From: Candidatus Poribacteria bacterium
Lineage (GTDB): Bacteria > Poribacteria > WGA-4E > GCA-2687025
Reading direction: 5' to 3'
Length of the DNA: 64,000 nt
NCBI GenBank assembly: GCA_963665845.2
Contig: OY762492.1
Span: 2,080,001-2,144,000, forward strand
Shown here: in pieces, positions 1 to 54,758 of the stretch
How positions within the stretch are numbered: the stretch's first letter is position 1
Layout: each line of letters opens with the position of its first letter
Position numbers and translations under genes: made by a program
Notes under the pieces: generated by a model
What the model saw: the letters and a program-made list of their open reading frames with translations, nothing else
Databases searched by the model: none
What the model was told of the DNA's origin: nothing

Positions 1-961
1 GCGCCTCGGTCAGCCGATTTTGCGCCGTCAGCGCCGCGCCGAGCGTCGTCCATGCCGCCGTCAGACGCGGGTTGAGCGCGCAGGCGCGTCGGCATTCCCA
101 TTCCGCCTTCTCCATCTCCCCGCGTTTCAGATAAAGAGCCGCCGCGTTCGTCAACAGCGCCGCTCGGCGCGCCGGGTCGGCCGTCTTATGAAGCGCGGTC
201 GTCACGCGCGCCAGCTGGTCGGCAATCGTTTTTTCCTGTTGAAAACGGCGCATCAGTTCGCGCCCGCGCTCAAGGTCGCCGTTTTTGAGAACCGCCCGCG
301 CCAGCCCGTACCGCGCGTCCATCAGCGTCGGGTCGATCTTGAGCGCCGCCTCAAAACGCGCCGCCGCCTCTTGCCACCGCTCCATGCGCGCATAGACGCG
401 GCCGAGTTCGCGCTGCGCCTTCGCCAGACGCGGATTCAGCCGCAGCGCCTCCCGTTGACTGATCAGCGCCGCGTCCAGATTGCCCGCCGCCGTCTGCGCC
501 GCGCCGAGGCGGCTCCAGATCCGCGCGTCCTCTCGATTCAACTGAACGGCGGCTTGGTACGCCTCAACCGCCCCGCCGTAATCGCGCAGCTCCATGCGCG
601 CGTCGCCGAGGGCGGCATGCGTCGTCGGAGCGTCCTGAACAAGCCGAAGCGCGTTTTCATAGGCGCCGACCGCCTTCATGGGCTGACCCAGAGCGGCAAG
701 CGCGAGACCCTTCGCCTCATGCGCCGATGCGCTGTCGGGCTGAAACGCAAGCGCGGCGCGGCACTCCTCCAACGCGCCCGAAGGGTCGCCAATCAGAAGA
801 AGCAGCCGCGCCAGCTGAACGCGCGCGGACGAATCGCTTGGCGCGCGTTGAACCGTCTGCCGCGCCGTTTCCAGCTGTTGAAGCAGATCGCGCCCCTCCG
901 CCGGCGGCGCGCACAGCATCAGACAGAGCGCGGACGCTAACGCCGTTTGAGCGATCCCCAT
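1..961 (-). CDS. Secreted TPR-repeat protein (3' end runs off the window)
   Basis: Not in the ORF track. My minus-strand translation from ATG 961 gives MGIAQTALASALCLMLCAPPAEG (signal-like), then TPR helices (AHEAKGLALAALGQPMKAVGAYENAL; IWSRLGAAQTAAGNLDAALISQREALRLNP). Confidence 0.8.
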   Translation of the reverse strand, partial: MGIAQTALASALCLMLCAPPAEGRDLLQQLETARQTVQRAPSDSSARVQLARLLLLIGDPSGALEECRAALAFQPDSASAHEAKGLALAALGQPMKAVGAYENALRLVQDAPTTHAALGDARMELRDYGGAVEAYQAAVQLNREDARIWSRLGAAQTAAGNLDAALISQREALRLNPRLAKAQRELGRVYARMERWQEAAARFEAALKIDPTLMDARYGLARAVLKNGDLERGRELMRRFQQEKTIADQLARVTTALHKTADPARRAALLTNAAALYLKRGEMEKAEWECRRACALNPRLTAAWTTLGAALTAQNRLTEA

Positions 962-1596
962 TGCGAAGCCAGTTTGCCTTTCGGATCGACGCTCGTCGCG
1001 GCGCCGGGTATCGAGTCGCCCGACACCTTCACATCGTCAAAGCTGGCGACGGTTGTCCATGCCCAGAGACCGACCATGCCGGCGGCGTAGGTGTCGTCCG
1101 TATTCTCCGCCTGTTTTTCGCCGTTGATCCAGAGCGTCAGGGTGTCGCCCGCCGCTTCGACGCTCACATCCAGCCAGACGCCGCGCTCCACCGTAATGTT
1201 TTGCGCCGCGTTGTTGCTGTTGATCGCCTCGCGGGCGGTGAACCCGCCTGCGTTGTGCTGCCACAGCTCCGACTTGTTGTTCGGCACATTCAAGTAATAG
1301 ACGTAGTATTGGAAATCGTCCTGGGCGCGGACGATGAGACCCGCCCAGTTGCCTTCGTCGATGCGCACCTTCGCTTCCAGCGTGTAGTCGGTCCAGTCGG
1401 CGGCGCCGATGAGCGTATGGGCGGCGGCTTCGTCGGCTTTCGTTTGCCGGTAGACGCCGTCCTCCGCCGTCCAGGTTCCGTTGGAGGGGGTCCAGTCGTC
1501 GGCTCCGTCGTCGAATGTCCATGTTTGTTCGCCCGCCAACGCCGTCCATGCGAGTATGCATGCGGCGGCGGCGCAGATTGTCATGCGAATTTTCAT
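937..1596 (-). CDS. Secreted DUF1080/GH16-like beta-sandwich protein with C-terminal WGxLK motif
   Basis: Signal peptide; WTAEDG, DYTLEAKV..AGLIVR, GMVGLW..ASFDDVKV pattern; ends SVDPKGKLASQWGSLKRR. Confidence 0.75.
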   Translation of the reverse strand: MKIRMTICAAAACILAWTALAGEQTWTFDDGADDWTPSNGTWTAEDGVYRQTKADEAAAHTLIGAADWTDYTLEAKVRIDEGNWAGLIVRAQDDFQYYVYYLNVPNNKSELWQHNAGGFTAREAINSNNAAQNITVERGVWLDVSVEAAGDTLTLWINGEKQAENTDDTYAAGMVGLWAWTTVASFDDVKVSGDSIPGAATSVDPKGKLASQWGSLKRR

Positions 1597-1655
1597 TCGC
1601 GTCTCCTTGTTTCTGTTTGATTCTGTTTAAGTCAGCTCCGCTGCGTTTTCATCGG

Positions 1656-2318
1656 TCAGCGCCGTTTCAGCGCCGCCCATTGAGACGCCAGTTTTCCGTT
1701 CGGCTGCACAGAAAGCGTGTCCTCAACATTGTCGCCTGTAATGGTGAGATCGTCGAAGCTCGCTTTGGACGTCCATGACCAGAGTCCGATGGCTCCCGCC
1801 GCGTAGGTCGGGTCGGAGATCTCCGCCTGCAGCTTGTCGTTGATGTAGAGGGCAAAGTCGCCGCCTTCCACTTCAGCTTTCACATGAATCCAATCGCCCC
1901 GCGTGACCTGAACGCCGTCCTTGACAGCGATGTTGGCATTGAGGCCGGTTCGCGCGTCAAAAGCGCCTGGGTTGTGCCGCCAGAGCTCGCTTTTGTTGTT
2001 CGGAACGTTCAGGTAGTAGACATAGTATTGAAACTCGTCCTGCGCCCGAAAGATCAGCCCCGCCCAGTTGCCCTCGTCGATGCGTATTTTCGTGTGAACG
2101 ACATAGTCGTCCCAGTCCGTTTCGCCGACGATGGCATGCGCGGCGACCATGGCTCCGTCGGTCTGTTGAAGAACGCCGTTGTTTGTTTCCCATGTTCCGT
2201 TGGCGATCTGCCAATCGTCGGTTCCGCCGGAGAAGTCCCAGAGTTGCGTTCCTGCGGCTGCAGTTGCCGCTGCCGCGGTTGCGATGAATACGGCGAATGC
2301 GCGTCGGCAATGTTTCAC
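1656..2318 (-). CDS. Secreted DUF1080-like protein, tandem paralog of 937..1596
   Basis: GTG start after AAGGAGG; shares RIDEGNWAGLIxRAQDxFQYYVYYLNVPNNKSELW with its neighbour; ends SVQPNGKLASQWAALKRR. Confidence 0.75.
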   Translation of the reverse strand: MKHCRRAFAVFIATAAAATAAAGTQLWDFSGGTDDWQIANGTWETNNGVLQQTDGAMVAAHAIVGETDWDDYVVHTKIRIDEGNWAGLIFRAQDEFQYYVYYLNVPNNKSELWRHNPGAFDARTGLNANIAVKDGVQVTRGDWIHVKAEVEGGDFALYINDKLQAEISDPTYAAGAIGLWSWTSKASFDDLTITGDNVEDTLSVQPNGKLASQWAALKRR

Positions 2319-2389
2319 TTCCGCCTCCTTTGGTTGCGCTGTTTTTGCATCATACCATAAACGCTGTTTGAATGTACTGCGCGGAGCCG

Positions 2390-4021
2390 TCATCTAAAAG
2401 CGGCGCCGAGCCGAAGATGAACGATCCCTTCCAGCAGCGGCGCGTCCGGCGAGACGCCGTACTGTATCTGCGCCAGCCCCGTCTTCGATTCAAGGTTCGC
2501 GCCGACGCCGTACCCGTATTGCGTTCGGTTTCTGTCCATTTGCCCGATGTCGATAAAAACGAACAGGCGGGATCTAGCCCCGGTCAAAAGGCGGTATTCG
2601 ATGGAACCGAGGCGTCGAACGGCGCCTTCAAACGCGCGCTCGCGGTGTCCGCGGAGGGTGTCGGCGCCGCCCATGCGGAACCGCTCCGCCGGCGGAACCG
2701 CCGACCCGCCGACCGATCCGACCTGCGCCTTTAAAGCGACCGCATGGCGGCGCGCCACGCGCTGAATGCGCTGAACGGACGCCTGAACCCGCTGAAAACG
2801 CGCCCCCCCGACGACAGCGTCCGCGCCGACCGCAACATGCCAGCCCTCCGTCGGGTTGTCTTGAAAACCTTCGCGCGCGTCCCATTCCGCCTCCGCCAGC
2901 AGCCCGTTTCCCGCCAGCCCGTCCGCGCGGAGACGCTGACCCCCCGCGGACGCCCGAAGCCGCGGCGCCGGCGTCCATCCTACCCGCAGGCTTCCCGTTT
3001 CACGATACCCGCCCTGAACGCGCTCCGCGTCCCAGCGCGCCTCCAGATCGACTCTAGAGCCAAACAGAAACGGTTCTCGATACGCCGCTTGCGTTGATCG
3101 GTCGTCTCCCGCCTCCCATCGAAACCGCGCCTGCCGACCCGTTCCAAACAGATTCAGGTCGGACGCTTCCACGGCGCCGATTAGCTGCGGCGCGTCCTCG
3201 TCCGAAAGCGGCGGGGCGTATCCGAGCAGCCCGACGGCGCGAAAAGTCGGCGCCTCCTCAACGCGCGCGCGAAAGCGGATCAAGCCGTCCCGTCCGCCCC
3301 TCTCCATGAGAGCGGGATGGACGGAAGCGAACCAGCCGCAGTTGAGCAAAATTTGCCGCGCATTGTCGATCTGGCGCGGATCGTAAAGGTCGCCCGCGCG
3401 GACAGGCAGGAGCCGAAGGGCGGTTTGGAGACCCGTTTTCTTCAAGCCTTCAAACTGGACGCTTTCGATGCGCGCCTCGACGCCCTCCTCTATTTGGACG
3501 CGCAGATGCGCCTCTCCAGTCTTCGGGTTGGCGCGGACAATCTCGGTGAGCGCGGAGGCGTAGGGTCGTCCGTTTTCGGCGTAACGCCGCGCCAGCCTGT
3601 CCAGCGCGCTGCGCCAGTCGATGGCATGCATCGGCGCGCCTGTTCGGACGCCGAGCGTCTGCGCCGCTTCTTCTTCGGTCAAGGTTTTCAGCCCGACCCA
3701 CTCGATGCTTTGGAGGCGCGCCGTCGGTCCCTCGCGCGCGCGGACGCGGAGAACGCGCGTTCCGTCCGGCAGCCGTTCCACGACCGCTTCCGCTTCCGCA
3801 AACAGCCGCCCCGCCGCTCGATACCGTTCCAAGACGGCGCGCGCCGCCTCCTGCGGGTCTGTATGCGCCGCGGCAGCCCGCCGCAGTTCGTCGGCGGAAA
3901 CGGCGCCGTCCCCCTCAATCTCTATTTCAACGGCCGTATCGGACGGAGCGGCAAACGCGGCGGCGCAGCATATCAGCGCGATCCAACAGCAGACGGCGGC
4001 AGTCCGCAGAGCCGATCTCAT
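2390..4021 (-). CDS. Omp85 family (BamA/TamA-like) outer membrane protein
   Basis: Signal peptide, POTRA-like repeats (IESVQFEGLKKT), NLFGTGRQ barrel start, FRMGGADTLRG (VRGY-like loop 6), C-terminal VHLRLGAAFR. Confidence 0.85.
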   Translation of the reverse strand: MRSALRTAAVCCWIALICCAAAFAAPSDTAVEIEIEGDGAVSADELRRAAAAHTDPQEAARAVLERYRAAGRLFAEAEAVVERLPDGTRVLRVRAREGPTARLQSIEWVGLKTLTEEEAAQTLGVRTGAPMHAIDWRSALDRLARRYAENGRPYASALTEIVRANPKTGEAHLRVQIEEGVEARIESVQFEGLKKTGLQTALRLLPVRAGDLYDPRQIDNARQILLNCGWFASVHPALMERGGRDGLIRFRARVEEAPTFRAVGLLGYAPPLSDEDAPQLIGAVEASDLNLFGTGRQARFRWEAGDDRSTQAAYREPFLFGSRVDLEARWDAERVQGGYRETGSLRVGWTPAPRLRASAGGQRLRADGLAGNGLLAEAEWDAREGFQDNPTEGWHVAVGADAVVGGARFQRVQASVQRIQRVARRHAVALKAQVGSVGGSAVPPAERFRMGGADTLRGHRERAFEGAVRRLGSIEYRLLTGARSRLFVFIDIGQMDRNRTQYGYGVGANLESKTGLAQIQYGVSPDAPLLEGIVHLRLGAAFR

Positions 4022-5130
4022 TGCGGTTCAACGGGGCGTTCCGCTTCCGCTTCTTTCACCGCTCCCCACTGCTCATGCGCCTTGCCCGCAGGGTCAACGG
4101 AGAGAAAGCGGCTCTTGCCCGCATGAACCCAAGTCGCGGCGCCGAACCTGCCGATGCGCACCATCTCCCGCGTGTTTATATGAATGCGGTAAAGTCCGCT
4201 CAGCGGGTTTTGATTGTCGTCAAGAAACAGATGGAATAGAATCCATTTGCTGTCCGCCGACCAATCGTCTACGTATGCCCGCAGTCCGTCTTTGCGGGAT
4301 GTGAGGCGCTCAACATTGGAACCGTCCGGATCCATCATAAAAAGGTCTGTTCCGCGTATCTCTCCTTCCTGCTCTTTCCGGTCGAACGCAGCGAACGCGA
4401 TCTTCTTGCCGTCCGGCGACCATTCAGGCAATCTCTCGGTTGCGGGGCTGTATGTCAGATTCACGACGTTGGAGCCGTCCGCGTTCATCGTATAGAGATG
4501 GTGAGGCCAGTAATCTCCAATGAGACCGAGCGCAGCTCTCTCCTCTTCGCTGACAGTGGAACTGTAAACGATATTCTTGCCGTCTCCAGAGACGGACGCC
4601 CACCATTCATTCTGAAGCGGCGTCTTGGTGAGCCGCTCCAGCGTCGCGTCGCGGATATCCAACGCGTAGATGTCGGAAAACTCAGGGATCGGGTTGTTTC
4701 TGTCGTTGACGCTGCATGCAAGACGCCTCCCGTCTGGAAACCACACTGCAAATGGAATGTAGATGTGTTTGAATCCTTTTTTATTTAGGCGCTCGGTCAT
4801 GTTGATGAGCCGCCCGGTTTCCAGCTCCAAGATGAACATTGTGTACCAACCGAAATCCTCCGTACTAGCGATGAAGGCGGCGCGTTTGCCGTCCCGGCTG
4901 AATCTTGCCGGAAGGTTGAATTCCCCGGTCATCCAGACCCTTTCGTTTTGACCGTCCCAGTCGATGAGTCTAAGCGTGTTTCCGCGCCTGACGCAGATGG
5001 TCGGCTTTTCCAGTTTCGTCACATCTTCCATCGGGACAAAATCTCTTGCCGGCGCGGAAGCGCACAGCAGAAGCGAGAAGACAGCGGACGCGAACGCCGC
5101 CACGGGTTTTGTGAAGGCGGAGAAGGTCAT
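4018..5130 (-). CDS. Secreted TolB-like PD40-repeat beta-propeller with C-terminal motif
   Basis: PEWSPDGKKIAF and LFMMDPDGSNVERLT repeats; ends RFLSVDPAGKAHEQWGAVKE...; stop overlaps the Omp85 start (ATGA). Confidence 0.8.
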   Translation of the reverse strand: MTFSAFTKPVAAFASAVFSLLLCASAPARDFVPMEDVTKLEKPTICVRRGNTLRLIDWDGQNERVWMTGEFNLPARFSRDGKRAAFIASTEDFGWYTMFILELETGRLINMTERLNKKGFKHIYIPFAVWFPDGRRLACSVNDRNNPIPEFSDIYALDIRDATLERLTKTPLQNEWWASVSGDGKNIVYSSTVSEEERAALGLIGDYWPHHLYTMNADGSNVVNLTYSPATERLPEWSPDGKKIAFAAFDRKEQEGEIRGTDLFMMDPDGSNVERLTSRKDGLRAYVDDWSADSKWILFHLFLDDNQNPLSGLYRIHINTREMVRIGRFGAATWVHAGKSRFLSVDPAGKAHEQWGAVKEAEAERPVEPQ

Positions 5131-5225
5131 GCCATGCTCCTTGCGGCATACTCCGTTTTGGAAAAGTCGCTATAACGTCGCTCATACGGGGGGAGATGTC
5201 AAGCGCCGCTATGCCTTTCTGCGCA

Positions 5226-6281
5226 TTAGTCGCCGTCTTGCGGAGTTTGATTATCGCTACGGTCCGCCGCTTTCAACGCTCCCCATTCCGCTTTTTTTTT
5301 ACCCGCCAGGTCAACGGAGAGGAAGCGGCTCTTGCCCGCCAAAACCCAGCGCGGATCGCGCCCCCCATCGAACGTCAGCTGAACAACCTCCTTTGTCTCC
5401 ACATGAACGCGGTACACATTCCATACGGCGCCGTCGACCCATTCCCTTGAACAATAGACAAGCCATTTCCCGCATGGCGACCACCTCGGAGCATAATCAT
5501 AGTTCGGGCTGGTTGTCAGCGGCTCCTTGTTCGAACCGTCCGCGTTCATCACAAAGATGTTGTAATCGGGAAATTCGGAACCGCGGGTTGACGACAACGC
5601 GATTCGTTTGCCGTCGGGAGACCATCTCGGAGCCACGTCATTGCTCGGATCGATGAAGCGGACAGCGCCGCTGCCGTCCGCGTTCATCACATAGATGTCA
5701 TGGTTGTCCTCGCCAGGAATCTGTGCGTCAAACACAATCTTATCCTCAACAGGCGACCATGAAGGTCCCTGATTGAAGTTATCGCGCGCGTTTGTCAGAT
5801 TTGTCAGACGGCCCGACGAAATATCCAGCTTGTAAATATCTGACCATGCTTTCCAATTCCCTTCAGGCAACGGAAAGCCTGCAAGAAGCAGCGAACGGCT
5901 GTCTCTAGACCACGCAGGGGTGTTGAGAGAAAGCTTGCCTTCAAACGGTTTCGTCACAACGTCGACTTGGTTTGTGGACAGGTTGAGAACGTTGACCGCG
6001 TAATTCCCTCCTCCGTAAAATCCGACAATGGCCGCGCGCCTGCCGTCTGGCGACCATTCGACGCCCGCTAGAAAGCGCATTCGCTTGCGCGCGTCGGTCA
6101 TCCACAACCGGTCGTTCTGCCCGTCCCAGTCGATGAGGCGCAGCTCGTATGCCTCGTTGGCTTTGTAAGCGATCGTCGGCCTCTCAAGCCGCAGCACATT
6201 CTCTTTGGGCTTTGGCAGCTGCGCCGCCGCGGAATAAGCCGACAGCAGCGCAACGGTCAGAAAAGATCCTATGAATCGCAT
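5226..6281 (-). CDS. Secreted TolB-like PD40-repeat beta-propeller, paralog of 4018..5130
   Basis: WSPDG repeats; shares LRLIDWDGQNxRxWMT with the paralog; ends RFLSVDLAGKKKAEWGALKA... Confidence 0.8.
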   Translation of the reverse strand: MRFIGSFLTVALLSAYSAAAQLPKPKENVLRLERPTIAYKANEAYELRLIDWDGQNDRLWMTDARKRMRFLAGVEWSPDGRRAAIVGFYGGGNYAVNVLNLSTNQVDVVTKPFEGKLSLNTPAWSRDSRSLLLAGFPLPEGNWKAWSDIYKLDISSGRLTNLTNARDNFNQGPSWSPVEDKIVFDAQIPGEDNHDIYVMNADGSGAVRFIDPSNDVAPRWSPDGKRIALSSTRGSEFPDYNIFVMNADGSNKEPLTTSPNYDYAPRWSPCGKWLVYCSREWVDGAVWNVYRVHVETKEVVQLTFDGGRDPRWVLAGKSRFLSVDLAGKKKAEWGALKAADRSDNQTPQDGD

Positions 6282-6593: not shown

Positions 6594-8024
6594 TTATCCC
6601 CGCACAGCGCACGGCGCCATCACGGCGTCCACCATCCCATGCAGCTTTTTCTTGTTCGACGGGCAGACGGTCGCTTGGATGCCGCCCAGCCGCGCCTTCC
6701 CCTCAACCAAGAAATAGTACGGCGTCAGGCGCGCCCGCCCGTCCATCGTCCGTATCTCCTTCGCCTCAAAATCGTAATACGGAACCTGAAACCGCGACCC
6801 TTTATGGTACGGCTGCAAGATATGCGGCGTCGTCGGAAATTGCGACAGCGCATGCTCCAGCGCCGCCCGCCAATCCTCCGCCGACAGGTCATGTCCAACG
6901 ACGACGCCGCGGCTCCCCCATGCATACGGCGAAAAGCCGGACGGCTTCACCACATACTCCCGCTGTTTCTGCGTCGCGCCGCCAAGCTCGCGGAAATCCT
7001 GAACGGGCAGCCCGTTGTGAACAAGCCCATGAACGACCGCATGCGGCGGAAGCGGCGACGGGTCCAGAACCCATGTCTTCGGCAGCAGGCTCTGCAGGTT
7101 CAGCAGCGCCTCGCCCGACAGCTCGCGCCTCCAGAACGGCTGTAGCGCCGGGTGATGAAACAGCGCAAACAGCAGCTTCTCCTCCAGATAAGCCTTCGGC
7201 GGCGGCGTCATCGGCGTTTCATTCTTGCGCGCCGCGTAAAGCATCAGATCCGCTTTCGGGATCGCCGCCAGATCAAACAGCTCAAAAAAGCGGTAGAGGA
7301 TGTCGACGGGAGTCCGCCCGCCGCTTCCGTTCTCTAAACAGACGCCGATCTCATCCTCGTAGCGCAGCTCTCTTGGATGGACGGTTCGCGTCTGGACGCC
7401 CTGCTCGGTCAGCTTCGGCGCGAGCCATTCCATTTCGGGGCGGTAATCGCCCGCCTCGTCCGATACGGCGACGGCGGCGGTCGGGTTCTCTTTCTTGGCG
7501 GCGGAACGGAGCGCGTCCGCCATCGCCTCGACAACGCCGTTCTCTCCCCCGATCACGTTCGCATGCGCGCCGCTGTAAATCTCGTTCAAAAAAGCGGTGA
7601 ACCCGATCCCGCCCGGCACCGAGTCCAGCTCCGCGATGGCGCAGCCGTTCGGCGTCGGCAGAACGTCGGGGCGTATAACAAGCGGCAGGCGGCTTTTGAA
7701 CCGATTCATACGCCCGTATTTGACGACCGTTTCATCTTTGCCTTGGTCAAGCAGCTCCGCCGCCCATTCGGGCTGAAGTCCGCGCACAGAATGGGAATAC
7801 AGCAGATTGCAGGCGGCGTAAAATTCCGCCAGATGCGTTCCAAGCCGCTCATACCATGCGAGCCGCTCCGCCGAGATCCAGAACGGGTCGGGCGAGACGC
7901 GCCATGAGGCGTTCGAGTCGGGATGCGTCGGGCGCTGTTCGCCCGTGTAGAGCGCGTGTTCCGCGAGCCGTTCGTTGACGGCGAGGGCGCGCCGCGCCGC
8001 GTCTTGTGTTGTAGAGATTTCCAT
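6594..8024 (-). CDS. Circularly permuted ATP-grasp ligase-like protein (GspS/glutathione synthetase-type fold), substrate unknown
   Basis: IRPD...IAELDSVPGGIG metal/ATP motif, LEEKLLFAL, YVVKPSG...WGSRGV, ILQPY. Confidence 0.65.
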   Translation of the reverse strand: MEISTTQDAARRALAVNERLAEHALYTGEQRPTHPDSNASWRVSPDPFWISAERLAWYERLGTHLAEFYAACNLLYSHSVRGLQPEWAAELLDQGKDETVVKYGRMNRFKSRLPLVIRPDVLPTPNGCAIAELDSVPGGIGFTAFLNEIYSGAHANVIGGENGVVEAMADALRSAAKKENPTAAVAVSDEAGDYRPEMEWLAPKLTEQGVQTRTVHPRELRYEDEIGVCLENGSGGRTPVDILYRFFELFDLAAIPKADLMLYAARKNETPMTPPPKAYLEEKLLFALFHHPALQPFWRRELSGEALLNLQSLLPKTWVLDPSPLPPHAVVHGLVHNGLPVQDFRELGGATQKQREYVVKPSGFSPYAWGSRGVVVGHDLSAEDWRAALEHALSQFPTTPHILQPYHKGSRFQVPYYDFEAKEIRTMDGRARLTPYYFLVEGKARLGGIQATVCPSNKKKLHGMVDAVMAPCAVRG

Positions 8025-9163: not shown

Positions 9164-9523
9164 TCATCCTAAACCGACGGCGATGCCTAAGATTCCCGCT
9201 TACGCGGGAATGACGCCGCGCGGGGCGGAGGCTTTTCCGCTGATCATCCTAAACCGACGGCGATGCCTAAGATTCCCGCTTACGCGGGAATGACGCCGCG
9301 CGGGGCGGAGGCTTTTCCGCTGATCATCCTAAACCGACGGCGATGCCTAAGATTCCCGCTTACGCGGGAATGACGCCGCGCTGGGATGACGCCGCGCGGG
9401 GCGGAGGCTTTTCCGTTGATTAGCCTAAACCGACGGCGATGCCTAAGATTCCCGCTTACGCGGGAATGACGCCGCGCGGGGCGGAGGCTTTTCCGCTGAT
9501 CATCCTAAGCCGACGGCGATGCC
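9164..9523 (-). repeat. Tandem array of about 80-bp units, each with the CGTCATTCCCGCGTAAGCGGGAATC palindrome (4 hairpins)
   Basis: Units start at 9164, 9244, 9324 (with a 16-nt internal duplication) and about 9420; a fifth partial unit is the 3' end of CDS 9500..9796. Confidence 0.95.
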
Positions 9524-9796
9524 GATAAAACAGACGCCGCCGGCTAAGAGCGTCCCCGCCGCGACCAGCGCGCCGATGCCGAGAGCGCTGGAAACGCAGC
9601 CGACCGCGCCCAGCACAACGCCCGCCTTCGCAAGCCGAGCCTGATACGGAAGCGCGATGCCGCGGCGCAGCTTGCGAAGGTCGTTGCGCGCCATCGCCCA
9701 CGCCACGCCGGCAAACGGCAGCATGGCGAACATTCCGATGACGCCGAGCGAGACGATCATGATGCCGCGTCCGTTCTGAAAAATGCGCCGCCGCAT
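9500..9796 (-). CDS. Small two-TM DUF4190-like protein (array member 6)
   Basis: GRGIMIVSLGVIG...GVAWAMARNDLRKL...AKAGVVLGAVG. Confidence 0.7.
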   Translation of the reverse strand: MRRRIFQNGRGIMIVSLGVIGMFAMLPFAGVAWAMARNDLRKLRRGIALPYQARLAKAGVVLGAVGCVSSALGIGALVAAGTLLAGGVCFIGIAVGLG

Positions 9797-9823
9797 GCCG
9801 TTCCTTTCTGATTGAATAACCTT

Positions 9824-10120
9824 CTAAAAGATAGAGAATAATTTCTCAAAAATCGCCTTGAAGACCGAGTCAAAAAAGAGGCTCTTGATCAACACGATAA
9901 GCGTGACGACTCCGCCGATGAGCGCCGCCGCCACTCCTAAGCCGTAGCCGAACTTGACAAGGATGACGCCGCTCTCGTCGGCTTCGTTTGCGCTTATTTT
10001 CCCCAGATCGTGTTTACCTACGACCCACGCGAGTATGCCCAACACAAGGGAGCCGAGCGGAAAGAAAAACAATATCGAAAGCGCGGCGCCGCCGATGAGC
10101 GCTCCTCGGATCGATTTCAT
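9824..10120 (-). CDS. Small two-TM DUF4190-like protein (member 5)
   Basis: LGILAWVVGKHDLGKI...VKFGYGLG; AAGGAG RBS. Confidence 0.75.
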   Translation of the reverse strand: MKSIRGALIGGAALSILFFFPLGSLVLGILAWVVGKHDLGKISANEADESGVILVKFGYGLGVAAALIGGVVTLIVLIKSLFFDSVFKAIFEKLFSIF

Positions 10121-10151
10121 CAACGGCTCCTTTCGTTTGACAGCGCAGGCG

Positions 10152-10427
10152 TTAGAAGGCGAGCAAGAACACCAATGTTAGCGCCAATCCGAGGATCGTC
10201 CCGGCGACAGCGGCGCTGTATCCGACAGCGGCAATGATCCTGTCGCTGCTGGAGCTGTCGCCATTCTGCGCCGCAGAAACCGCTTTGGCTCCCATGAACC
10301 ATGCGATGCCGCCGACAACCATTCCGACAAGCGCAGAAAAGCCGACAGAATGCCAGATGGACGCGAGCGACAACAGAACTGACGCGGCGCCAAGACCGAG
10401 AACCAGCGCAGGTCGAGTCGGTTTCAT
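10152..10427 (-). CDS. Small two-TM DUF4190-like protein (member 4)
   Basis: MKPTRPALVLGLG...GGIAWFMGAKAV...AAVGYS; AAGGA RBS. Confidence 0.7.
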   Translation of the reverse strand: MKPTRPALVLGLGAASVLLSLASIWHSVGFSALVGMVVGGIAWFMGAKAVSAAQNGDSSSSDRIIAAVGYSAAVAGTILGLALTLVFLLAF

Positions 10428-10438
10428 GAGAGAGTCCT

Positions 10439-10738
10439 TCACCCAAAGAACGTTATGGTACCGACGCTGGCAAGCATAAAAAGCAGACCCAGACAAAGCA
10501 GCCCCGTATAAACGCCTCCAATAACGGCGCCGGCGGTTCCAACCCAGTATCCGATCTTCACATAATCCGGATTGAGTTCGTCAGGCTCCTCGCTGCGGTA
10601 TCCGTCCGCCGCGTATCTGGCGAGCGTTCGCGTTCTCATTCCTAAAAAAAGACCGACCGGACCGAAAATAAACGCCAAGATGATACTGGCGATCCCGTAT
10701 GCGAGGATGCGCTCATCCTGTTTTAGATCCAGATTCAT
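10439..10738 (-). CDS. Small two-TM DUF4190-like protein (member 3)
   Basis: RILAYGIASIILAFIFGPVGLFLG...VKIGYWVG; close paralog of member 2. Confidence 0.75.
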   Translation of the reverse strand: MNLDLKQDERILAYGIASIILAFIFGPVGLFLGMRTRTLARYAADGYRSEEPDELNPDYVKIGYWVGTAGAVIGGVYTGLLCLGLLFMLASVGTITFFG

Positions 10739-10803
10739 GTTCCATGCCTTTCCTTGTAAGCCGACGCTCTCACTGCGGACAATCCGATTTCATGCGCCGC
10801 TCT

Positions 10804-11091
10804 TCACCCGATAAACGACAACAGGTAGCCGGTCAGAAAAAGCAGAGGCAGCGAAGCCATGAGAACGATTCCAATCACAATGCTGACGAATCCAAGCGAC
10901 GACCCGATCTTCGCAATCTGCAGATCAAATTCGTCTTGCGGGGATCGTCCGTATCGAATCGCCGCGTCTGTATAGAGGAGGCGTGTCCTAACCCCCAACA
11001 CAAGACCGACCGGACTCAAAACAAACGCCAAAATGAGACTGATGACGCCGTATGCGAGGATGCGCTGATCGGGTCCTATTTCCAGTTTCAT
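10804..11091 (-). CDS. Small two-TM DUF4190-like protein (member 2)
   Basis: RILAYGVISLILAFVLSPVGLVLG...AKIGSSLG; its ~45-nt leader is duplicated in front of member 3. Confidence 0.75.
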   Translation of the reverse strand: MKLEIGPDQRILAYGVISLILAFVLSPVGLVLGVRTRLLYTDAAIRYGRSPQDEFDLQIAKIGSSLGFVSIVIGIVLMASLPLLFLTGYLLSFIG

Positions 11092-11185
11092 GTTCCATGT
11101 CTTTCCTTGTAAGCCGACGTTCTCACTGCAGACAAGCCGCCGACCTGCGCGCGCGTCTCCTTTCCGTCCGCCGTCCGCCAACTTA

Positions 11186-11473
11186 TCACATCCCGACGAA
11201 ACTCAGGAGGACGCCAAACACTCCGAGAGCGAGGAAGATGCCAAAGATGACGATCCCTACAAAAACGGAGACCATGCCCATGATTTTGCCGGCGCTGATC
11301 ATGCCTCGGTCGGCGGGGTCAATGGTTCCGTCCTCTATGCCGCGGAGGTCCTGATTTCCCATTGACCACGCGACGATGCCGACGATGAATCCAACAGGGC
11401 AGCATCCGGTGAGGCTAAAGATGACGGCGACAATGCCCAGCACAAGAATAAGCGTTCCGCGTCCTTGCTGCAT
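11186..11473 (-). CDS. Small two-TM DUF4190-like protein (member 1)
   Basis: GRGTLILVLGI...GCCPVGFIVGIVAWSMGNQDLRGIEDG..D...RGMISAGKIMG; GGAAAGGA RBS. Confidence 0.85.
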   Translation of the reverse strand: MQQGRGTLILVLGIVAVIFSLTGCCPVGFIVGIVAWSMGNQDLRGIEDGTIDPADRGMISAGKIMGMVSVFVGIVIFGIFLALGVFGVLLSFVGM

Positions 11474-11490
11474 GATGTTCCTTTCCAGGT

Positions 11491-12402
11491 TTAAATTCGC
11501 GTCCATGCCTTGATGAGCGTTCGTTTCGCGTTCGCAATGACAACCTCGGAGGATTGTCCAGGCTGCGGGCGCACCTCAAAGCTGACGACGCGCGAATTCT
11601 CTGACGGCTCAAGATAGTTGATGAACGTCAAGGTCTGTAAAAACTCTGCCAGCTCCTCAACGCCGTTCTCTCCGCCTTCGATGCCGAAATGCGGGTGCTG
11701 ATCGCCGTAAGCGGGATGGTTCGGGTCGCTCAAAACGCAATTGCCGATGTGCGCGTGGATGAGATGCTTGCCCGCGGTTTTGATTGCCGGGTAGATCATT
11801 TCATGCTGAAGCGGCAGATGGGACAGGTCTAGCATTAGCCCAAAGTTGGCGCGGTTCACTTTTTCTGCAAGATCAGCCGCTTCGTCCGTCGGTCCGATCA
11901 GCGCCTTTTTGTCGATGGTACGGTCGAAGGTTTCCAGCGCGACGCCGAGTCCGCAGCCGTTCGCTTCATCGCATATCTCTTTGAGCGAACGGGCAAGCAA
12001 TAGGGACGCTTCGGGTCGGCGGTCTTCGCCGGGGTCGGGACCGCTCACCAGCGCGATCGACTCGGCGCCGATTTCCGCCGCCTCTTCGATGCATTCTTTG
12101 ATGCGGTCGACGGCTTGCCGCCGCTCCTCATCGTCGAAGGCGTTCAGGTTCAGCTGGTTGGAAAAGACGATCGGCTGCGCGGCGTATGCGACGCCCATGC
12201 CGCTCGTTTCCAGTATCGCTTTGACCTCTTGGCGCGCCTTCGGGTCTTTGATATGGGTGATTTCGATAAAGTTAAAGAACGGGTCCTCCGCCAGTTTTGT
12301 GATCGTCTCAACGACCGGACCCTCTCCCGACATGCATTCAGGGTACGCCATGAAATGCACGATGCCCACGCGCATATATTCGTAGAGCGAGACGTTTTCC
12401 AT
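11491..12402 (-). CDS. Sugar phosphate isomerase/epimerase (xylose isomerase-like TIM barrel)
   Basis: ALETFD, LMLDLSH, HAHIG and SFEV metal-binding motifs. Confidence 0.85.
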   Translation of the reverse strand: MENVSLYEYMRVGIVHFMAYPECMSGEGPVVETITKLAEDPFFNFIEITHIKDPKARQEVKAILETSGMGVAYAAQPIVFSNQLNLNAFDDEERRQAVDRIKECIEEAAEIGAESIALVSGPDPGEDRRPEASLLLARSLKEICDEANGCGLGVALETFDRTIDKKALIGPTDEAADLAEKVNRANFGLMLDLSHLPLQHEMIYPAIKTAGKHLIHAHIGNCVLSDPNHPAYGDQHPHFGIEGGENGVEELAEFLQTLTFINYLEPSENSRVVSFEVRPQPGQSSEVVIANAKRTLIKAWTRI

Positions 12403-53058: not shown

Positions 53059-53976
53059 TTAGAACGGCAGCGGCTCGCCCATCGAAGCCGTCCTCTCCGC
53101 ATACAGCTCTTGAAGCCGCCGCGTCGTCTCCCCGATCCCGCCGCTTCCGATGACCCGCCCGTCCACCTTCAACACGGGGCTAAGCTCCCCCATCGTTCCG
53201 CTCGTGAACATCTCATCGGCGGCGTACACTTCCGCCATCGAAATGTTCCGCTCCTCGACAGGGATGCCCGCTTCCCGCGCAATCTGCATCACAAACCCGC
53301 GCGTGATGCCCGGCAGGCAGCTGTCTGCCCGCGGTGTCAACAGCCGCCCGCGCTTCACAATAAAAATGTTCGTCGCGTTCGTCTCGGACACATAACCGTA
53401 CAAATCCAGCATGACCGCGTCGTCCGCGCCCGCAAGGTTCGCCTCAATCTTCGCCAGAATGTTGTTGGCAAGGTTGTTGTGATGAATCTTCGAGTCGAGC
53501 GTGGAGGGCGAATTGCGCCGCACCGACGATGTGATAAGCGAGACGCCCGCCGGGTTGTAGATCGGCTGCTTCCATTCCGGCAAAACGATCATCGTCAAGC
53601 CGTACTGGTTTCGCCGCGGGTCCATGCTGGAGGTGATCTTCAGCCCGCGGCTGATTGTCAGGCGCACATGGCAGCCGTCGCGCATTCCGTTCGCTTCAAG
53701 GGCGGCGAAAACGGCGCTCCGTATCGCGCCGCGGTCGGGGATGTCCTCAAACGCCATCGCTTTGGCCGAGTCGATCAGCCTGTCCAGATGCTCGTCGAAG
53801 GCGAAGATGCGTCCGTTGTAGACGCGCAGCCCTTCCCAGACGCCGTCCCCGCCTTGAACGAGGCTGTCGAAGACGGAGATTTTGGCGTCGTCCCGATGGT
53901 AAAGCCGCCCGTCGATCCAGACCTGGATGTCGGCGTTGCGCGGGTCTGGGAGCGGCGGTTCCGTCCGCGTTTTCAT
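53059..53976 (-). CDS. Class IV PLP aminotransferase (branched-chain/D-amino acid type)
   Basis: GDGVWEGLR, HLDRL, SETNATNIF, LPGITR, ADEMFTSGT. Confidence 0.9.
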   Translation of the reverse strand: MKTRTEPPLPDPRNADIQVWIDGRLYHRDDAKISVFDSLVQGGDGVWEGLRVYNGRIFAFDEHLDRLIDSAKAMAFEDIPDRGAIRSAVFAALEANGMRDGCHVRLTISRGLKITSSMDPRRNQYGLTMIVLPEWKQPIYNPAGVSLITSSVRRNSPSTLDSKIHHNNLANNILAKIEANLAGADDAVMLDLYGYVSETNATNIFIVKRGRLLTPRADSCLPGITRGFVMQIAREAGIPVEERNISMAEVYAADEMFTSGTMGELSPVLKVDGRVIGSGGIGETTRRLQELYAERTASMGEPLPF

Positions 53977-54758
53977 TGCCGTTTGAGCCTTCCCCATTGA
54001 AGCGGGAGTTTGCCGGCAGGTTCCACCGACAGCGTCGTATCCATCTGATCCTGTATTTCGTTCTGCGTTCGGACGACATCGGAGATGCGCACCTCGTCAA
54101 TGGCGCCGTGGAAGTATCCTTGGCCGTCCCCCTTGAAGCCGATGTAAAGGACGGTCGCGGTGGGGTCGACCGCTTCGTTGACGGTTCCTTCGGTTTTCAG
54201 TTCGCCGTCCACATAGATTTTCGCGTCACGGCTGCCGCCGTCGAAGGTGAGAGCGGTATGGCGCCATTCGCCGACATGGTCAATGAAATGGTAATCGTTC
54301 GTCGACTCGAGGCGGGCGCCCCAGATGCCGAACCAGAGCGCGCCGCTGTTGGCGCCGTGAACGACCCACTGGTAGGCGTTGCCTTTGAAGACGATGGCGC
54401 CGGCGCCTGTCCACTTGTCGGGAGAGGAGTCGGCGCGTATCCATGCTTCGATGGTGATGTCGCCGGTGTCAGGGTGAAGGTTGTCGTTGTTTTGGACGAC
54501 GACGCGGGCGTTGGAGCCGTTGAAGAGCAGGGCGGTTCCAGAAATGCCCGCCGTCCATTCGCCTTTTTCAATCTCGCCGGCGCTATCGAACTGGGAGGAG
54601 TCTTCGGCGTCGTCCCCCGCGCCTTCGTCGAATGCCCAGTAGGCGATCACGTTGTCGTCAACGACGCCTTCGGCATAGGCTGTAACGGCGGTCATCGCAG
54701 CGGTTATCACAGCGGTCATCGCGGCGAGCAGGGCGTACATCCATCGCGCGTATTTCAT
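53973..54758 (-). CDS. Secreted LamG-like jellyroll protein with C-terminal motif
   Basis: YWAFDEG, ITIEAWI, WRHTALTFDG, FHGAIDEVRISD; ends LSVEPAGKLPLQWGRLKRQ. Confidence 0.9.
   Translation of the reverse strand: MKYARWMYALLAAMTAVITAAMTAVTAYAEGVVDDNVIAYWAFDEGAGDDAEDSSQFDSAGEIEKGEWTAGISGTALLFNGSNARVVVQNNDNLHPDTGDITIEAWIRADSSPDKWTGAGAIVFKGNAYQWVVHGANSGALWFGIWGARLESTNDYHFIDHVGEWRHTALTFDGGSRDAKIYVDGELKTEGTVNEAVDPTATVLYIGFKGDGQGYFHGAIDEVRISDVVRTQNEIQDQMDTTLSVEPAGKLPLQWGRLKRQ

Follow-up and report, generated by a model that had tools for sequence, protein, structure and literature searches.

The locus described here raises the question of what a short C-terminal stretch does on exported proteins that otherwise share little. 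In a 64,000-nucleotide stretch of a Candidatus Poribacteria genome (contig OY762492.1, positions 2,080,001 to 2,144,000; hereafter the window), five genes for predicted exported proteins encode the same 17-residue motif at or near the C-terminus, and four of them flank a gene for a 543-residue outer membrane protein of the Omp85 family. Is this tail an address for export or surface anchoring, and is the Omp85 protein its reader, as an earlier note on this DNA had proposed? The motif is real and stands at or near the C-terminus of about 120 small proteins of the genome, nearly all of them predicted to be exported. Our preferred reading, held with slightly better than even confidence and drawn from sequence comparisons, is that the tail is an address tag by which small cargo would enter a type IX secretion system (T9SS) without the folded C-terminal domain (CTD). 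The Omp85 protein is probably not what reads it.

A recurrent tail on small exported proteins

The tail has the consensus L-S-V-[DNE]-P-x-G-K-x-x-x-x-W-[GA]-x-[LIV]-K. With a short regular expression, 96 matches were obtained in the 58,028 stop-to-stop frames of the genome, 96/96 within 30 residues of the stop, and a profile built from these matches returned 117 at 10 bits or more, again all within 30 residues of the stop and none internal. The best score on reversed sequences was 8.4, and these decoys rule out a chance origin. At 9 bits, the profile found 121 tail-bearing open reading frames (ORFs) in 73 clusters, 27 of which hold two or more. The tryptophan is invariant (116/116) and a lysine nearly so (114/116), and at the start of the motif serine is found in 103 and valine in 109 of the 116 tails of this genome. 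The tail was present in all 61 genomes of the phylum Poribacteria that were searched, with at least 8 to at least 124 matches each, counts that are lower bounds, as at most 130 candidates were scored per genome.

Among the 114 tail ORFs of at least 200 residues, 109 have a predicted signal peptide against a background of 730/2491 ORFs (29%), as called by a permissive custom heuristic, not a dedicated predictor. None of the 114 has a lipobox, which rules out lipoprotein anchoring. The protein bodies fall into 19 unrelated families (with 41, 24, 17 and fewer members); for 21 tail proteins, Pfam names included laminin G, CBM9, NPCBM and PKD, and seven had no match. They are small, with 196 to 495 residues (median, 268) compared with 288 to 4014 (median, 905) for proteins carrying the T9SS sorting domain.

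The tail itself is uncatalogued as far as Pfam, NCBIfam, the PDB and the open literature were searched. None of 23 tail members matched Pfam, NCBIfam held no relevant model for them (one weak and off-topic PqqD match, E 0.045), and PDB chains contained no relative (best E, 0.56). No description of the motif was found in the main texts of the open-access literature; PMC12611786, in its available part, does not bear out that a PorV-like barrel there binds a C-terminal tail, and PMC7313196, as far as available, deals with a topic other than secretion in Poribacteria.

The PEP-CTERM, GlyGly-CTERM and LPxTG signals are familiar cases of brief, portable C-terminal tags shared by exported proteins that are otherwise unrelated. 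The present tail differs from them in having no hydrophobic or transmembrane helix, which rules out a transmembrane sorting signal, and none of the NCBIfam or Pfam models of those signals matches it. The earlier idea of a portable tag, free of a transmembrane helix, on exported proteins of unrelated folds, confined to their ends across the genome, is borne out.

The five window copies were correctly located and all lie on the minus strand, although only three of the five proteins end in the motif, as had been claimed for all. These are a 219-residue signal-peptide protein with a PF06439 (3-keto-disaccharide-hydrolase-like, lectin-like) domain at 937..1596, ending in SVDPKGKLASQWGSLKRR (940..993); its PF06439 paralogue at 1656..2318, ending in SVQPNGKLASQWAALKRR (1659..1712); and a 261-residue laminin-G (PF13385) protein at 53973..54758, ending in SVEPAGKLPLQWGRLKRQ (53976..54029). 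Homologues of the first keep the tail at the end in 47/49 cases, the remaining two being truncated or frameshifted; those with a named source, like the named homologues of the Omp85 protein, come from Candidatus Poribacteria. The paralogue likely starts at a GTG at 2318, preceded by an AAGGAGG box; an alternative ATG in the same frame, at 2393, overlaps the stop codon of Omp85.

The other two proteins are PD40/TolB-like propellers, in which residues follow the motif. The first (4018..5130, 370 residues) carries SVDPAGKAHEQWGAVKE at 4051..4101 with 10 residues after it, and its paralogue (5226..6281) carries SVDLAGKKKAEWGALKA at 5268..5318 with 13, mostly acidic or polar in both. Such a non-terminal motif with an extension is typical of the family (40/43 proteins), whose tails also have a lysine in place of the hydrophobic residue. 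The family has about 41 copies in the genome, among them those at window positions 4018-6281. The N- and C-terminal ends of the copies are nearly identical, some stand as tandem pairs and several are broken, and the family looks like one diversifying by duplication and recombination.

Probable kinship with type IX sorting signals

The earlier note had set the T9SS aside, and this is where the best link of the tail was found. Neither the six window proteins nor the 23 tails matched TIGR04183 or PF18962, the type A sorting domain, a beta-sandwich with motifs B, D and E. Nevertheless, on sequence comparison the tail motif is homologous to the linker preceding that domain in Poribacteria. A DNA search for G-x-x-K shortly before PNPFNPE found such hybrids in 58/61 genomes of the phylum and the reversed pattern in none; this genome (G000), its same-genus relative G008, and G006 gave no match. 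In the 20 listed hybrid places inspected, the whole motif forms the linker before the type A domain, as in AVNPMGKAIDTWGKIKKTDLFQNY and VEPRENHLTTLGDIKRTALLQNY. Linker and tail profiles align over 25 columns (P 89%, E 2e-6), and 28/31 linkers have valine or isoleucine at the matching position. The tryptophan position is leucine in 24/31 and tryptophan in only 3/31, suggesting that the terminal and linker forms are under different constraints. In this genome, a remnant of the form W-[SA]-x-x-[KR] precedes the domain in 16 of the 45 proteins with PNPFNPETWIP. Terminal tails end 1 to 4 residues past the lysine, about where the sorting domain starts in hybrids. In an AlphaFold2 model of one hybrid, the sorting domain scored mostly above 90, and residues 1 to 41, which hold the motif, scored below 50 and showed no packing.

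Compared with type A CTDs, the tail is likewise C-terminal and portable, sits on Sec-exported proteins of the same genomes, and has a start resembling the PT/GI cleavage consensus reported for Prevotella intermedia (PMC11969387, in its available part). It differs in its 17 residues, with no beta-sandwich of 40 to 90 residues and no motifs B, D and E, in its conserved W-[GA]-x-[LIV]-K, in its small cargo, and in a cleavage that is only putative. It therefore resembles a T9SS signal in where it sits and in what accompanies it, yet is not a member of type A, since the defining domain is absent. P. intermedia's short CTDs (40 to 51 residues), as described in the same source, indicate that a T9SS signal can lose length without losing its cleavage and glycosylation; three strands and motifs B, D and E are retained in them, whereas the tail has only the cleavage-like start and W-G-x-x-K. 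Type B and C CTDs and uncleaved PorZ/PorQ-type anchoring, as far as described in the available part of PMC10202324, pair different signals with different PorV/PorP-family barrels, of which this genome has 15; there, each signal is a folded domain of some 100 residues or longer, and the tail genes have no dedicated barrel gene.

TIGR04183 domains had been reported from Poribacteria by Kamke et al. (2014), who did not find structural genes and did not settle the pathway, according to the accessible portion of PMC3909097. The genome analyzed here holds 53 TIGR04183 matches, 51 of them over the cut-off, together with candidate machinery. A 2225-residue SprA-like protein (E 1.5e-53) scored 182 bits against a cut-off of 200, and two C25-type PorU-like proteins, with the His-Gly and Cys kept, scored 321 and 320 bits against 420. 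Of the 15 PorV-family barrels, 5 exceed the NF033709 family cut-off, none exceeds the PorV equivalog cut-off, and none falls within the PorV clade of a quick tree; two are single-copy core genes, one present in 30 and the other in all of 31 genomes of the phylum. GldN was not found in this approximately 90% complete genome by a search that had no positive control, and the PorZ model matched only sorting domains in the genome. The nearest tail gene lies 55 and 97 kb from the PorU-like genes, 2.5 to 93 kb from the PorV-like genes and 1 kb from the SprA-like gene; because these distances are mostly large, no operon points to a tail reader.

Several barrels stand out by their surroundings. Four PorV-family genes come directly after genes whose very large products have atypical sorting domains, one product being a PorU-like sortase (G000:C1:1858816-1865773, 3638941-3651608, 829876-838574 and 2312510-2325634), an arrangement like that of dedicated type B shuttles. 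Two others are fused to a SPOR domain (G000:C1:2940669-2942906) and to a lytic transglycosylase (SLT) domain (789330-790847), fusions that would tie PorV-family barrels to peptidoglycan. A FadL-type barrel at G000:C1:2162401-2163771 has BamG as its best NCBIfam match, although below the cut-off (E 3.5e-13).

Beyond Poribacteria, a pattern that itself demanded the protein end retrieved at least 128 loci with a cousin of the tail, [PSA]-V-x-x-x-[ST]-W-G-x-I-K-A-x-[YF]-R. Among the 80 matches listed, the record titles name Ignavibacteria, Eisenbacteria, Latescibacterota, Zixibacteria, KSB1, Calditrichaceae, Chlorobiaceae, Bacteroidota and unnamed bacteria, and one record is labelled Alphaproteobacteria. 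Most complete cousin proteins have, by eye, a signal-peptide-like start. The spacing from V to W is five residues shorter than in the tail, and the two align over 11 columns (P 74%), a length that makes homology likely and falls short of proof. The earlier term "lineage-specific" would be too narrow if this cousin of the Fibrobacteres-Chlorobi-Bacteroidetes (FCB) group is homologous. SprA was found in 50/50 tested cousin genomes (48 over the cut-off), which are kin and not independent.

In the phylum of genome G164, the cousin occurs once per genome, in 37/101, on a signal-peptide protein of 130 to 190 residues (L119:1501-1917, L296-L315, L337-L344). This protein has one immunoglobulin (Ig)-like domain, ends in S-x-V-[KR]-R-T-W-G-S-I-K-A-M-F-R, and had no match in Pfam or NCBIfam; in the ESM Atlas, it matched only unnamed Ignavibacteriota clusters. 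Its Ig-like domain presumably resembles the Ig domain that precedes type A CTDs. Its neighbourhoods (29 + 20 + 8 loci) hold housekeeping genes (Maf-like, SpoIID-like and MATE, by eye) and no export genes. We regard it as a candidate for an unrecognised T9SS component. Single-copy cousins occur in records titled Ignavibacterium sp. and Melioribacter sp., lineages with cultured members, where the idea would be testable.

The terminal position of the tail, its portability over 19 families, its spread through the phylum, the hybrids and the presence of SprA-, PorU- and PorV-like genes together point to a T9SS tag. A tail protein would first cross the inner membrane by Sec export. A T9SS component, be it the SprA-like translocon, one of the PorV-family barrels or a PorU-like sortase, would then bind the W-x-x-x-K stretch, which is probably a short helix, and the tail protein would cross the outer membrane. 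The PorU-like sortase might cut before S-V, at the point where cleavage of type A cargo takes place, and would attach the small lectin-like or propeller domain to a surface glycolipid or release it. Small single-domain cargo would use the tag alone, and large cargo the full sorting domain.

Several observations weigh against this proposal. The tail lacks the strands and the motifs B, D and E that PorV binds, and the shortest T9SS signals described in the available part of PMC11969387 have 40 to 51 residues and three strands. Proline stands right after the proposed cut in 25/81 other terminal tails, and the rarity of tryptophan in hybrid linkers argues that the two forms are constrained differently. 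The hybrid and cousin sets were picked by patterns that hold the G and K, so that their likeness to the tail is partly circular, and the cousin alignment is short. SprA is common in these phyla, its co-occurrence with the cousin was seen among kin, and 64/101 genomes of the outside phylum have no tail match. The SprA-like and PorU-like scores lie under curated cut-offs, no barrel joins the PorV clade, and the GldN and PorZ searches were negative within the limits given above. Lastly, cleavage by Porphyromonas gingivalis PorU is reported, in the portion of PMC4804311 available, to be sequence-independent, which makes the likeness of the tail to a cleavage motif weak evidence.

The Omp85 gene and competing readings of the tail

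The Omp85 gene (2390..4021, minus strand) overlaps the stop of the 4018 propeller gene by ATGA at 4018-4021, as noted before. Its product has a TamA-like predicted layout: the AlphaFold2 model shows three POTRA domains and a 16-stranded barrel (mean predicted local distance difference test score, 91.7), and Foldseek matched the model to BamA and TamA at E 1e-28 to 1e-30. Despite this likeness, the protein scored far under the cut-offs of the BamA model TIGR03303 (93 against 297 bits; five POTRA domains expected) and the TamA/TamL model (37 against 625 bits), and no tamB-like long neighbour gene was present at the window locus or at the other loci mapped by eye. The genome holds four other Omp85 genes, for 836 to 1107 residues. 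The window protein belongs to its own subfamily, common to Poribacteria and FCB-group genomes and matched in 149/151 genomes of the phylum Poribacteria.

For a random interval of the size of the Omp85 gene, the probability of tail genes on both sides is 0.0005, so that the four flanking tail genes stressed earlier are present and unusual; the genome nevertheless holds four such sandwiched genes, and the other three include, by eye, sugar-isomerase-type and ABC-transporter genes. In the 30 best Omp85 loci of Poribacteria, a tail gene lies within 1.5 kb only in this genome and in G008, with 0/28 in the others and 0/30 at loci of outside phyla, 26/30 of which end in the subfamily signature as judged by eye. 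Ten wider windows outside G008 held one tail gene, 7 kb away. Even in G008 the locus has one propeller gene instead of two, the paralogue at 5226..6281 not being at the corresponding place, and no tetratricopeptide repeat (TPR) gene follows it.

In the 101 genomes of the G164 phylum, a clear orthologue was found in 61 and a weaker one of the same length in 9. Exactly these 70 genomes also encode an unnamed barrel of about 1150 residues, and the other 31 have neither. Its gene is directly upstream of Omp85 in 7 of 20 loci examined, which were chosen because earlier mapping hinted at the adjacency, and also in several FCB lineages; the homologue here is at G000:C1:3353107-3356535, with relatives at L316-L322, and one of three tested had a weak SprA match (E 4e-5). 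Of the 37 cousin-tail genomes, 34 have both Omp85 and barrel and 3 have neither, and 36 of the 70 genomes with the pair have no tail match. Therefore, the Omp85 protein tracks the barrel and not the tail, with which its co-distribution is complete within Poribacteria and breaks down outside. The two may possibly form an undescribed two-gene outer-membrane module or a small second translocon. The Omp85 gene adjoins PorV-family genes in G100, G104, G132 and G135, and so it may give a general service to the same envelope system.

These data bear directly on the reading put forward earlier, in which the three-POTRA Omp85 protein, perhaps with the 1150-residue barrel, reads the tail and exports or anchors its bearers, with the TPR protein as adaptor. 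The two-sided flanking, the ATGA overlap, the presence of the family in nearly all Poribacteria and in 34/37 tail-bearing genomes outside, its company with PorV-family genes and the SprA match of the barrel all speak for it. Yet the linkage is not conserved beyond the genus, three further genes of this genome stand between tail genes in the same way, the propeller genes upstream are members of a family of 41 that is dispersed through the genome, many genomes have Omp85 without a tail match, and the three with the tail and no Omp85 match, all drafts, have SprA and PorU-like proteins. We consider this reading improbable. The adaptor part was rejected because the TPR gene, a generic one, is not conserved at the locus.

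A better alternative, which we hold possible although doubtful, is a retained docking or anchoring peptide that ties small binding domains to an envelope scaffold, a receptor barrel or a membrane face. If hybrids were cut after the motif, both classes would end in it, in keeping with tails that stop about where the sorting domain begins; the constancy of W and K suits a binding site, proline is frequent at the proposed cut, and the spacing of L, W and I/L suggests an amphipathic helix. The route of tail-only proteins to the surface would then lack an explanation, the lysine and acidic extension of the propeller tails fit a plain membrane anchor poorly, and no scaffold candidate was found. It seems very unlikely to us that small proteins use the tail to ride along on partners with a full sorting domain, or to assemble with these or with each other: the motif adjoins the sorting domain in hybrids and tail genes are often in tandem, but the unpacked motif region of the hybrid model, itself weak evidence, speaks against it. 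We give least credence to a jobless leftover of genes that lost their sorting domain. Homologous linkers do stand before such domains; however, the tail is kept on 19 families in one genome and throughout the phylum, its tryptophan varies less in terminal tails than in linkers, and the single-copy protein keeps the cousin nearly unchanged in 37/101 outside genomes.

If the T9SS-tag reading is true, it extends the T9SS to Poribacteria, gives a sequence rule for recognising the proteins on the surface of a dominant symbiont of sponges (about 3% of the genes of this genome), and adds a signal far shorter than any described for a T9SS, a peptide tag for surface display. As a wider and distinctly more tentative picture, Poribacteria and non-Bacteroidia FCB bacteria might share a stripped-down T9SS, with SprA, PorU, many PorV-family barrels and perhaps no ring or motor, in which a fourth signal class of 12 to 17 residues replaces the folded CTD. 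Its ancestor would be the single-copy Ig-domain protein, machine-part-like in Ignavibacteria and relatives, the tail having been co-opted for at least 100 surface lectins per cell, and the Omp85 protein, together with the SprA-like barrel of 1150 residues, could provide this signal class with a small second translocon. The new elements are the tests to which the Omp85 and TPR proposals were put, the pairing of Omp85 with the barrel, and a single-copy cousin protein that could serve as an experimental handle.

Other genes of the window

The TPR gene (1..961, minus strand) encodes a 555-residue protein without the tail; only its start lies in the window, and the gene continues past the edge. In one metatranscriptome, the contigs matching a small share of the window derive from diverged relatives and hence allow no inference on its transcription. 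A gene at 6594-8024 encodes a 476-residue protein that matched nothing in Pfam or NCBIfam and looks, on inspection by eye, like a circularly permuted ATP-grasp ligase; the gene comes after those for a small iron-sulfur-type domain and a serine acetyltransferase-like protein. At 9500-11506, on the minus strand, about six small membrane-protein genes stand in tandem, each of about 100 residues and with a similar two-helix layout.

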